Positions 13,980 through 63,790 of a stretch of DNA of 64,000 nucleotides are shown in pieces (the stretch's first letter is position 1; each line of letters opens with the position of its first letter). The position numbers and the translations under genes are program-made. The notes beneath the pieces are model-generated. The model was given only the letters and a program-made list of their open reading frames with translations, did not search any database and was not told the DNA's origin. This DNA comes from Octopus vulgaris (taxonomy: Eukaryota). Location of the stretch: NCBI GenBank assembly GCA_951406725.2, contig OX597830.1, forward strand, positions 36,952,001 through 37,016,000, given 5' to 3'.

Positions 13980-14167
13980 TTGGAATTTACAAAAAAGCAA
14001 AAAAAGAAGACAGGTGTGTAAACAAGAAACAGGTGTATTAGTTTAACGCTCGGGAAGGTTAGAAAGTCTTTTACGTTTTGAGCCTACGCTCTTCAACAGA
14101 AAGGAACACGAGAAAATAAACAGAGAATGAAAAATGCTTTAGTGGTTAGCAGTCGATCATGGTGAAT
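13980..14167 (-). mobile_element. Hammerhead-bearing short repeat, subfamily 2
   Basis: Homologous to 20830-21015 (+), 57050-57240 (+) and 63230-63420 (-). Motif at 14068-14103: CUUU CUGUUGA A GAGC-GUAG-GCUC AAAA CG UA AAAG. Confidence 0.75.
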
Positions 14168-14190
14168 GTTATTTATAGAATTATTTCAAA

Positions 14191-14490
14191 GTCCCGAAGG
14201 ACAAATTGTCCCGAAGGACAAATTGTCCCGAAGGACAAATTGTCCCGAAGGAGATCAAAGAGGAAAAGGATCCCATCAACTTTAAACAGAGTCTGGATAG
14301 ATTCCTTCAAAGAATACCAGATAAGCCACCCATAATTGGATACAACTCACCCAACAAGAACTCACTACTTGAACAAAACTTGCCTTAAACAGGATTCGCA
14401 AAATCCTATCAGATGGTGCTATTAAGTTAGACATGGCCTGGACCAATCTTTGGTCGAAACATATCTAAGTTTATCTAAGTTTATCTAAAG
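14191..14490 (+). mobile_element. 5'-truncated CR1-group LINE 3' end with a 17-bp tandem repeat at its 5' junction
   Basis: Peptide KEIKEEKDPINFKQSLDRFLQRIPDKPP; tail (atctaagttt)n; gtcccgaaggacaaatt x3.6 (14191-14252); possible TSD aaagtc. Confidence 0.82.
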
Positions 14491-14800
14491 TCGTAGATAA
14501 AATGGTATATATAGAATTATATCAGTCGTAGATATTATGTCATATATAGAACTATACCATAGTCGGAGATATAACGTTATATATAGAATTATTTCAAAGT
14601 CGTAGATATGTTATATATATAGAATTATATATCTAGTCTTAGTCATATACAAATATCCTAGATATCGAAATTATGTATCATATATAAATTATAAAATAAT
14701 CTTAGATATGCAAATTATACAATATCATATAAAATATGTATTAACGCTCGATAGCCAAATTATATCATATTATAAATAAATTTATATCATAGTCCTGGAT
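14490..14800. repeat. Degenerate ~33-bp AT-rich minisatellite, interrupted by the CR1 fragment
   Basis: Recurring tatatatagaattat...agtcgtagata units; the first unit starts at about 14168. Confidence 0.75.
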
Positions 14801-14837
14801 ATCCGAAATCTATGAGACGTCTGGAATGCATTTGACC

Positions 14838-15040
14838 AGGAGCTGGCAGAAACGTTAGCACGCCGGGCGAAATGCTTAGCGGTATTTCGTCTGTCTTTAC
14901 GTTCTGAGTTCAAATTCCGACGAGGTCGACTTGCCTTTCATCCTTTCGGAGTCGATAAATTAAGTACCAGTAGCGTACCGGAGTTGATCTAATCGACTGG
15001 TCCCCTCCCCCAAAATTTCGGGCCTTGTGCCTAGAGTACA
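14838..15040 (+). mobile_element. SINE family A, tail type A
   Basis: gagctggcagaaacgttagcacgccgggcg...gagttcaaattcc...ggccttgtgcctagagta. Confidence 0.9.
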
Positions 15041-59572: not shown

Positions 59573-59998
59573 AATAATAATAATAATAATAATAATAATA
59601 ATAATAATAATGATAATAATAATAATAATAATGATGATGATGATGATGATGATGATGATGATGATGATGATGATGATGATATTAATAATAATAATAATAA
59701 TAATGATGATGATAATAATGATGATAATAATAATAATGATGATAATAATAATAATGATGATAATAATAATAATAATAATAATAATAATGATGATAATAAT
59801 AATAATAATAATAATGATGATGATGAATAATAATAATAATAATAATGATGATGATAATAATAATAATAATAATAATAATAAATAATAATAATAATAATAA
59901 TGATGATGATAATGATGATAATAATAATAATGATGATGATGATGATGATGATAATAATGATGATGATGATGATGATGATAATTATAACAACAACAACA
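59573..59998. repeat. (AAT)n/(GAT)n compound microsatellite
   Basis: Directly visible. Confidence 0.97.
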
Positions 59999-60391
59999 TG
60001 ATTATGATTGCATATTATCATCATAATCACCATTATGTATATGAAGAGGCACATGATCACGATTTTGCTTGGCGTTTTGCTGTTAACATACATTCCAGAT
60101 CGTATCGTCGTGTTCGTCTAATTAACAATTTTTGTAATTCGAAAAAAAAAAATGCAAATTTACCACAATTTATGCAACACACACGCACACTCAGACACAC
60201 ACACACAAGTACACATACATACACACACACACAAGAATAGGCATGCATGTGGATGCGTGTGTCCATCAATATATATATATATGTATACAAGGAAACACAT
60301 AAATATATACCAATATATACATACATGCATATATATACACACATAAATGCGTGTGTATATATATATATATATATATATACATATATATATA

Positions 60392-60586
60392 TGAAATACA
60401 AAAATGGGACAAGAACGCAAAACATCCATACAGTTAAGTGAAATAAAAAAAGGAAAACAAATCATCCAGACAGACGATACAAGGAAAACGAGGACGGATC
60501 ATTCGGAGTTTTCTATCCTCAGTCGAGTTTTTGTTTCACTTAATTTTCAGGATGTTTTTCGTTCTTTTCCCATTTTTGTATTTTAA
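60392..60586. repeat. Short element with ~45-bp imperfect inverted ends
   Basis: aaatacaaaaatgggacaagaacgcaaaacatcc..ttaagtgaaa versus tttcacttaa..ggatgtttttcgttcttttcccatttttgtattt. Confidence 0.75.
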
Positions 60587-63229
60587 TATATAAAATATAG
60601 CGGCGTACGTACACACGTACACTTTGGTCTCTTATATATATATATTCTGGAAATTTAAATCTACACTACTGATTAATTCATCTTCTCTGTGAAACTAATA
60701 AGCTTTTAAGAATCTGTGATAAGACTGTGCATCATCAATAAGGAACTTTGGAAATCTGCTTGCAACCTAAATCTGCCTTTAATGAAATTATCTCCAATAC
60801 TTCATGAGTATAGCCTCACCCACTAAGATGTTTGGAGAACTCATATGTATTTTAGCTGATGAGTACGGGACACTTTTATCTGCAGCAATTTTTGCAACTT
60901 GTAATAAAGCCTGTCTTTGTATGAAACAATTGTACTAAAAACTAATCCATTCTTGTTGCTTCTTTCTCGTATATATATATATATATATATATATATATAT
61001 ATATACATACATGGATACATACATGCATAATACGTACATGCTCATATATACATTATATATGGAATTCGCTGACAAAGTGATAGGCATGTATATGTGTGGG
61101 TGTATGTATCTGTGTACGAGATAGGAATGTGTGTGTTTGTGTGTGCGCGTGTGTATCTATTTATGTATTTTCACATACACCATTATCTATCTATCAATCT
61201 ACCATTTATTCCAAAGCTTTGCTGAGTAAAAGAAGAAATTTTCTTTGACATCGTTACCGACATATTTTGTTTTCACTATTATCTGTTTAAAGAATCCCTA
61301 TTCACACGGAGACAGACATCGTCTCATTTCATTCGCGAGAATACGTCAACTGTTTACTTACATTTGGTAAAACGACTCAGAACTTTAGAAATATATCAAT
61401 GGTTTGACTGTATGACGTTGAAACCTTTTTGCATATTTAAAAGAATGTCCTAAAATAGATGCAAAATATATATCTGACTAGCTATCTATCTCTCTCTCTA
61501 TCTATCTATCTATCTATCTATCTATCTATCTATCTATCTATCTATCTATCTATCTATCTATCTATCTATCTATCTATCTATCTATCTATCTATCAATCCA
61601 TCAATCCATCTATCTATCTATCTATCTATCTATCTATCTATCTATCTATCTATCTATCTATCTATCTATCTATCTATCTATCTATCTGTCTGTCTGTCTG
61701 TCTGTCTGTCTGTATATCTATCTATCTATCTATCTATCTATCTATCTATCTATCTATCTATCTATCTATCTATCTTTCTATCTATCTATCTATCTATCTA
61801 TCTATCTATCTATCTATCTATCTATCTATCTATCTATCTGTCTATCTATCTATCAACCATTTTATTTGATAAACCAAGAAGTATATTTTATCAATCATTG
61901 TTAGAATTTAGATAATTAATATTCAATCTACGATTGCTTAAAAGGTAATGATGAATACGTGATGAATTTTGTGGCTGATAATTATTTTGCTTATGATGCT
62001 AGAATCAGTTAGATGTATTCAAGTCGGGGTGGTTGGTGAATTAAGATGGTGACCGTTTCAGGTAAATTATGATTCTCGTATTGCTAATGTCAGTTCTATT
62101 TTCTATAAAGCATAAAAGCAATTTTATTTTATGCAATGTTATGTACATATTACAAGCACCAATAACGGTGTATGCCTCTGAGAATGTTCGTCCAAATATA
62201 TGCAAGTATGTAGACGATATATAAGCGCATGGAATCAGCCTCTAATTCCTACGGTTTTCTCTATAAACTGATAAGATGAGTTAGCTTTAACCTTCGGGAA
62301 CCGGGTGAAAGTCACTGATGATGAATGTATATGTATGTGAGTGAATGAATAATGTGGCATATATGAAGATATAGCGTATTTATCTTGTTTAATTTGTTAT
62401 TTTGGCTCGTTGTTCATGTTTGGGATGTTTTGTTTGTATTGTATTACCTTGTTTTTGTTGTATGTATTTATTTAAATTATTTTTCTTTGACCGTATCGAG
62501 TTGGTTTCATTTTCCTTTTTGTTTCTATAAATAGAAAAATAGTCACCTCTCCTGTATTTACTTTAAACTATAACTTAAATATATTGTAAGATTTATATTA
62601 TAAATTGTTTTATCTAGATATAAATTCTTTTATTTAGATTTGAGTTGATATTTAAAATGTTTTACCATAAATATATAGACATGTGTGTATGGAATTGTAT
62701 ATATATGCATATTGTAAATATATATATAGATGAATAATATGCATGTGTGTATATGTACGTGTGTGTGTATGCATATATACATAAATGGATAGGTATGCGT
62801 ATGCATATATAAATATATATAAATATGTATATATGAATGTCTGTATTATGCAACAAAATCGGTTATAGAACAAGATACTAAAAGATTTAAATTTAGGAAT
62901 TTACATAATTTCAGTCAGATTATTTATTTATGATTAAGCTCGCTTTCAAAAAGCGTTTTTTGAAAAGTGTTAGCAGTTATAAAATATTTTAATTGCTATT
63001 TTTCGTGTAATATTTAAGAATATATGTTGATCTGATGAAACCGCATTATATATTTAAACGGGATTCTATTAATCTTCAAAAGCTTGGTTTTATTAATGAA
63101 GTGGAATCATGTAATTTATGAGATGTGTCGTTTGTTTGTACAAAACAATCCAATTAATGATTTATTTAATTGTTCAGTTTATTGTTTTGGCCTCCTAATT
63201 TATATATATATATATATATATATATATAT

Positions 63230-63790
63230 AGGGAGAATTCACAAAAAAACAAAAGACGAAGACAGGTGGTGTAGACAACAAACAGATGTATTAGCTTAAC
63301 GCTCGGGAAGTGAATCAGTCTTTAACGTTTTGACCCTACGCTCTTCCACAGAAATGAACACAGAAAGAATCAAGGAGAGAAAATAAAGAATGAGTAGTGG
63401 CTAGCGATCTATCATTGCAAATGCCGGACAGAGGGGGTCACACAGGAAAGTTGGGAAGGAGGGGAGATAATAAAGTAGTGGTGATCCCCAAACGAAGGTG
63501 CGCGTGCGTGTGTATAAGAGAGCATGGATGTGCGTATGGAAGAGGGCTGGTGACCTTGACGTGTGTGTATGAGTAGGTGTGTGGATGTGGGGCTGAGAAG
63601 TGGTCAGTGCTTGTGTGTACGTGATGGTGTGATGTGATGTGGTGTTGTGTGGTATGGTGATGTATTGTGTGATGGTGTGTAGTATGGTGTGGTGGTATTG
63701 GGATGTAGGGGTGGCGAGAGTAAGAAATCAAGGGTGGAGTGTGGGTTAGGCTGAGGGTGGGGATAGAGGTAGTGTATGTGTATATATATA
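63230..63790 (-). mobile_element. Longest copy of hammerhead-bearing repeat subfamily 2
   Basis: Motif at 63320-63355: AUUU CUGUGGA A GAGC-GUAG-GGUC AAAA CG UU AAAG. Homology to the other copies covers 63230-63420; a GT-rich extension to about 63790 is assumed to belong to the element. Confidence 0.7.

Follow-up and report, generated by a model that had tools for sequence, protein, structure and literature searches.

What carries a hammerhead ribozyme motif with U instead of A at core position 6, and can such a motif still cleave? A 64,000-nucleotide stretch of the Octopus vulgaris genome (GenBank assembly GCA_951406725.2, contig OX597830.1, forward strand, positions 36,952,001 to 37,016,000; hereafter the window) raises this question, as it contains four copies of one. 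The coordinates and strands that the original prediction gave for the four motifs proved correct, as did T at core position 6 (14096, 20906, 57124 and 63348) and T, C, A and G, in that order, at position 7. The motif has a stem I of 4-5 bp, a GAGC/GCUC stem II, an inserted A and the segment GAAA-CG-UH. We found that U6 belongs to a recently amplified autonomous Penelope-like element (PLE) and that, through the history of this family, the only hammerhead columns to change are the two left free by the catalytic consensus.

U6 is the consensus of a large genomic family

We counted the motif over the 2.8-Gb genome with an exact 29-nucleotide pattern, using the reversed pattern as control. The genome-wide consensus is U6, as the original prediction implied, and not A6: 16,728 of the 17,365 exact copies had U6, 183 had A6 and 454 had C6 or G6. 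The reversed pattern had no occurrence genome-wide, and the abundance of the U6 pattern lies far beyond chance. Among the first 100 U6 copies listed, position 7 was U in 43, A in 26, C in 19 and G in 12 (hand count). An unselected sample (40 stretches of 10 kb at fixed places, 400 kb in all, searched with a profile) held 11 U6-family copies, nine of which had kept the core, all nine with U6; seven copies of the sister family described below were present in the same 400 kb. Extrapolation from 11 copies per 400 kb suggests a U6-family total of roughly 40,000 to 140,000. As a separate observation, G7 was commoner among A6 copies (29 of 100 listed) than among U6 copies (12 of 100 listed); age or mutation context seems the likelier cause of this excess, because the A6 copies form no single clade in a tree of the flanks.

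The carrier is an autonomous Penelope-like element

Longer U6-family copies have a GIY-YIG endonuclease frame upstream of the motif, and one locus (L101) holds a full-length element. Its two 342-nucleotide pseudo-long terminal repeats (pLTRs) are 99.4% identical and contain CUGUUGA in each, with hammerhead motifs at positions 4415 and 8889 of the locus. Between the pLTRs lies an unbroken 1,095-codon frame for a reverse transcriptase (RT) plus a GIY-YIG endonuclease in the C-terminal part. In Pfam, this frame matched RVT_1 (E 6.6e-7) and GIY-YIG (E 0.0088, with a score short of the curated cut-off but the motifs present), and it displays DKG, YIDD and, at residue 831, a C-x4-C-x2-C linker. A CX2-5CxxC linker between RT and endonuclease is described as a mark of the Neptune and Nematis clades (PMC8557442), and the element is probably a Neptune-type PLE, an assignment made by linker motif.

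The endonuclease part of the element gave 150 scored genome matches at 98-100% identity, of which 18 lie in frames of at least 1,000 codons (hand count) and several stand in tandem with a spacing of about 4.48 kb. Downstream of it, U6 was present in 30 of 30 fetched young copies (mean identity 99.5%), which, together with U6 in both L101 pLTRs, bears out the earlier proposal that U6 was amplified along with the family. The pLTR ends 102 nucleotides past the cleavage site, and the first ATG lies 724 nucleotides past it. Stems, inserted A, GAAA-CG-UH and pLTR location also fit the Penelope-type minimal hammerhead that had been proposed. The description as a retrozyme-like family had to be abandoned: the pLTRs that carry the motif belong to an autonomous element which encodes protein and has a 4.5-kb unit, and the short copies are variable lengths of the 3' end of this element, not the short non-coding tandem units of a retrozyme. 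Copies of different subfamilies often adjoin or nest, also in inverted orientation (L101:8889-9270, L039, L074), as described for PLEs. The genome also holds a distant third Penelope-like RT/GIY-YIG family, at 25-34% identity (L243:855-1781, L006, L078, L090, L160).

Only the two catalytically free positions have moved

To follow the history of the family, we built a tree of 133 copies from their flanks alone, with the core columns excluded and an arbitrary root; its shape is a ladder. On this tree, N7 required 19 steps, where shuffling gave a mean of 69 (minimum 59), and H17 required nine, where shuffling gave 40 (minimum 33). Inspection of the tree by eye gave seven subfamily stages, two of them with only 4 and 7 copies. 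Along their ordered consensuses N7 reads U-C-G-A-C-U-U, that is five changes, and H17 reads A-A-U-A-A-A-U, that is three changes, all transversions and never to G. The expectations that N7 is fixed differently between subfamilies and that it varies more than neighbouring sites were both supported, since every flank column changed at most three times. None of the other 34 hammerhead columns changed; in the downstream flank, 31 of 89 columns did (Fisher p 1.1e-5). Unchanged throughout were C3, G5, G8, A9, G12, A13, A14 and the A15.1-U16.1 palindrome, and the youngest stages acquired a fifth stem I pair. The catalytic consensus is reported to leave exactly two sites free, N7, and H17 provided that it is not G (PMC3088659). 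Hence, the sole moving columns, N7 and H17, are the two sites free in that consensus.

Many copies in the tree and consensuses were retrieved with patterns in which core letters are fixed. This ascertainment worry is limited, because the unselected 400-kb sample and a sample chosen by flank alone give the same core consensus. For the position 6 consensus, copies fetched by A6, C6 or G6 patterns were left out, and CpG columns above 30% were restored. Four apparent changes in constrained columns were an artefact of A6-selected loci and CpG decay, and were gone after filtering. The stems are invariant within the U6 family; the swaps seen are one stem I pair between the sister families and two stem II pairs relative to the outgroup L249 introduced below.

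Because change is confined to N7 and H17, without H17 ever turning into G, and G5, G8 and G12 are retained, we lean towards reading the U6 motif as a slowed ribozyme still under selection, assisted by dimerization or by a protein. A dead, unselected motif, in which U6 had a single origin in a source element and then hitchhiked, is very improbable. Neutral changes can become fixed in a single source lineage, and the tree is indeed a ladder, but such carriage sits poorly with a hammerhead that kept all 34 columns while about a third of the flank columns (31/89) changed.

U6 is likely a derived state

The oldest stage was sampled by flank alone, which yielded 39 neighbours (L204-L242), four of them unreadable at position 6. 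The 35 readable copies comprised 24 with U6, 10 with C6 and one with A6, and the base of the flank tree is a U6/C6 stage. A6-selected loci had pointed to an ancestral A6 subfamily sharing the loop, which this flank-only sample ruled out (1/35 A6). C6 is far more frequent than the 4% T-to-C background would give (p 1e-6), and a separate C6 subfamily is suggested by this excess; no clear linked diagnostic site was detected in the C6 copies (best p 0.007, uncorrected). Of note, C6 is the same change as in the Mn2+-preferring phage hammerhead. A metagenome contig (L249) carries a relative about 51% identical over the C-terminal part of the RT, with a canonical CUGAUGA behind the frame. Since this relative and the sister family both have A6, U6 is likely derived.

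Window copies and the sister lineage

The window contains six fragments of the two families:

13973..14172, minus strand: 5'-truncated 3' pLTR of the U6 PLE, old U6U7/A17 subfamily (C3 14099, U6 14096, H17 14072)
20829..21030, plus strand: 5'-truncated 3' pLTR, U6C7/A17 subfamily (C3 20903, U6 20906, H17 20930)
57051..57272, plus strand: 5'-truncated 3' pLTR, G7/U17 subfamily judged by flanks (U6 57124), ending in (TA)n
63212..63780, minus strand: longer 5'-truncated copy (3' untranslated part and pLTR), U6G7/U17 subfamily (C3 63351, U6 63348, H17 63324)
8682..8877, minus strand: sister Penelope-like pLTR fragment with canonical CUGAAGA core and 3-nucleotide loop II (C3 8826)
28915..29102, minus strand: second sister pLTR fragment with canonical CUGAAGA core and decayed stems (C3 29058)

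Judged by their sequences, the four U6 copies are older, 5'-truncated insertions of the autonomous element. They share one repeat (77-89% identity over about 200 bp), as had been described, but the proposed length of about 190 bp does not hold for the 63-kb copy, which extends to about 63780. The lesions pointed out earlier are genuine, and none of the four motifs is intact. The 14-kb copy has G12A, the 21-kb copy has CpG-type changes in loop II and in the stem III palindrome, and the 57-kb copy is without C3, U4, the palindrome G and one stem I pair. The 63-kb copy combines G12A with a stem II mismatch and, like the 57-kb copy, ends in (TA)n. Because the flank tree groups the 57-kb copy with the G7/U17 subfamily, its A7 is probably a private change; a genuine A7 subfamily exists elsewhere in the U6 family. 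A search of the window against Rfam returned no hammerhead, only microsatellite noise, among the best 150 of 174 matches.

Both window sister copies have A6 and the 3-nucleotide loop II, and their fourth stem I pair is G-C, against C-G in the U6 copies. This sister family has 13,072 exact copies genome-wide; among 100 listed, A6 was present in 100 and C4 in 74 (hand count). Its youngest members (L245-L247, e.g. G000:C1:130867700-130874500) are full-length, with a 6.2-kb unit, pLTRs 99.8-100% identical, a CCGACGA core and C17. The sister RT-endonuclease is 66-70% identical to that of the U6 element, and its frame was in pieces in all three sister copies fetched. As read from their cores, the two sister lineages have each altered the CUGA U-turn, at different positions (A6U and U4C).

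A third hammerhead type was also noticed at L200, as an inverted pair at 9881 (plus) and 175 (reverse strand), with a canonical core, a longer stem II and a stem III that is a true palindrome. Elsewhere in the window, positions 10220-10690 hold 2.6 tandem copies of the 183-bp unit of another dispersed repeat, which has inverted copies near 19750, 39900 and 42000. Short frames at 53349 and 11789 (both minus) resemble what we take to be fragments of other non-LTR reverse transcriptases.

Does the U6 motif cleave?

In the hammerhead U-turn, the 2'-OH of U4 contacts N7 of A6. The lineage fixed U6 in the minimal hammerhead of its pLTR while keeping the other fixed core positions. As A6U alters the CUGA U-turn, it would be expected to lower the cleavage rate, and if the motif is a slowed ribozyme, the remaining cleavage would need a second copy as partner or the protein that the element encodes. 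Reverse transcription apparently begins about 100 nucleotides downstream of the cleavage site. Slow cleavage may thus be tolerated or even favoured, because fast cutting of the 3' pLTR would part the RT start from the coding body, and residual cleavage could release unit-length RNA from tandem arrays. A broader proposal, which we hold only tentatively, is that both lineages independently broke the U-turn and kept the catalytic bases, so that these motifs would act as cutters switched by a protein, with selection acting on the low basal rate itself.

Published work on other hammerheads points in both directions. In favour of residual activity, a natural A6C hammerhead is reported to have low but detectable activity, and a natural U4C to be still sufficient in a viroid (PMC3088659); the A6C hammerhead cleaves well, at near-normal rates, in Mn2+ (PMC7151607). 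Metazoan minimal hammerheads cleaved weakly and as dimers only (PMC4209133). For one PLE hammerhead, cleavage was reported only with its protein, no RNA ends were seen at the cleavage site, and insertion in vitro still proceeded with catalytic mutants (PMC11167929).

We looked for traces of cleavage in the truncation junctions of the youngest family. Of the 83 junctions kept, 18 fell at the cleavage site (hand count); these came from 100 of 119 matches listed, with 17 rows dropped as indels, which leads to an estimate of about 21 at the site. A control TA in loop II had 16 of 95 junctions (hand count), and the cleavage site is itself a TA, in keeping with the (TA)n target. The 49 junction rows of the C7 subfamily were mostly indels, with no peak at the cleavage site. 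In the unselected sample, 9 of 11 insertions span the site. Since most insertions span it and the pLTR ends 102 nucleotides past it, the templates were presumably uncleaved or re-ligated there.

Several points weigh against a selected, slowed ribozyme. The junctions show no clear excess at the cleavage site (about 21) over the control TA (16). In a full mutational scan (PMC9901934), all single and double CUGA mutants other than the C3:G8 swap were reported to be low in activity, with no rescue, and we identified no change compensating U6. Invariant blocks occur in the flanks as well (58 of 89 columns), and the invariance of the motif may stem in part from protein binding, promoter function or ascertainment. 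Finally, stem I of the youngest C4 sister element contains a U-U mismatch, which looks like relaxation.

It is therefore worth weighing a motif that does not cleave at all, its fold being kept for protein binding, for overlap with a pLTR promoter or as an RT start signal. We regard this as possible, if less probable than a slowed ribozyme. It would agree with the near-inactivity of CUGA mutants in vitro (PMC9901934), with PLE insertion in vitro that was unaffected by hammerhead mutants (PMC11167929), with Naiad PLEs that are described as thriving without canonical hammerheads (PMC8557442), with the lack of an excess of cleavage-ended copies and with a U-turn change in each of two sister lineages. 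Folding predictions point the same way: U4-G5-U6 pairs with A15.1-C-G in a closed helix with a mean probability of 0.66 in 30 U6 copies, compared with 0.09 in 27 A6 copies, so that U6 favours the closed helix in the monomer. However, this helix is predicted to be no stabler than the misfolds of A6 copies (-1.9 vs -1.8 kcal/mol), and C6 and C4 copies lack it. The idea that U6 and C4 lock the same off-helix was ruled out, as C4 copies do not form it in the folding. A fold without catalysis also leaves it unexplained that C3, G5, G8, A9, G12, A13, A14 and A15.1-U16.1 stayed fixed while only N7 and H17 moved.

At the other extreme, the U6 ribozyme could be fully active in vivo, with a metal ion, a tertiary contact or an element protein making up for the loss of A6. 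The near-normal rates of A6C in Mn2+ (PMC7151607), the protein assistance reported for a PLE hammerhead (PMC11167929) and the composition of the oldest stage (24 U6, 10 C6, 1 A6), whose source elements seem to have carried both pyrimidines, would suit such compensation. We nevertheless consider it unlikely, given that a compensating sequence change was not identified, that double mutants were reported without rescue (PMC9901934) and that 9 of 11 insertions span the cleavage site. On balance, a slowed ribozyme under selection keeps a slight preference.

The question matters beyond this locus. PLE hammerheads barely cleave in vitro and insertion can do without them, yet they persist in nearly all canonical PLEs. 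The U6 element, which amplified recently, has retained the complete motif but with an alteration at a position marked as essential by mutagenesis. The history of the family offers natural U6, C6, A6 and C4 versions for direct comparison. If the U6 motif cleaves, the search consensus is too strict, and tens of thousands of motifs have been missed in one genome. If it does not, the family is a clear example of a ribozyme fold retained for a role other than catalysis. Should both lineages indeed have been selected for a low basal rate, they would be a natural experiment on the purpose of PLE hammerheads.

Comparison with known systems

The closest relatives in the literature are the minimal hammerheads of metazoan PLEs (Cervera and De la Pena, 2014; PMC4209133). 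The octopus motif shares with them the type I topology, the U-rich 5' flank, the base between A9 and G10.1, the G10.1-C11.1 pair and the GAAA-CG-UH palindrome without stem III, as well as the NUH site, the location in both pLTRs and the predominance of truncated singletons. It departs from them in lacking A6: all 56 representatives in Fig. S3 of that study have U4 and A6, the only core variant being U3-A8. U6 was not retrievable there, because the descriptor fixed the core boxes.

At the level of the element, the single frame with RT (DKG, YIDD), CX2-5CxxC linker and C-terminal GIY-YIG, the pLTRs, the tandems and the (TA)n flanks are those described for Neptune and Nematis PLEs (PMC8557442), from which the U6 element differs by its non-canonical hammerhead core. 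The Poseidon element PAc of Anolis (Frangieh et al., 2024; PMC11167929) likewise has its hammerhead upstream of the 3' end of insertions, with templates apparently uncleaved and no end signal at the cleavage site. Its hammerhead overlaps the start codon, whereas the first ATG of the U6 element lies 724 nucleotides past the site and the core is a variant one. Non-LTR retrozymes (PMC6765202; bioRxiv 10.64898/2026.07.22.740005) also carry a type I hammerhead, placed in a repeat akin to PLE pLTRs, but as short non-coding tandem units, in contrast to the 4.5-kb coding unit found here, the short copies of which are truncations.

The nearest precedent for position 6 is the A6C hammerhead of phage Bcep176 (PMC3088659, PMC7151607), with a pyrimidine in an otherwise normal core, as in the old C6 fraction of the octopus family. 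That case is one phage sequence with C, whereas the present one, known from sequence alone, has U in more than 16,000 exact copies that belong to an animal retrotransposon amplified in recent times. No natural A6U hammerhead was found in our literature search, Lunse et al. (2017), Hammann et al. (2012) and figure images being outside its reach. PLE minimal hammerheads are thus already known, and, within the literature searched, it is their A6U core that appears to be new.

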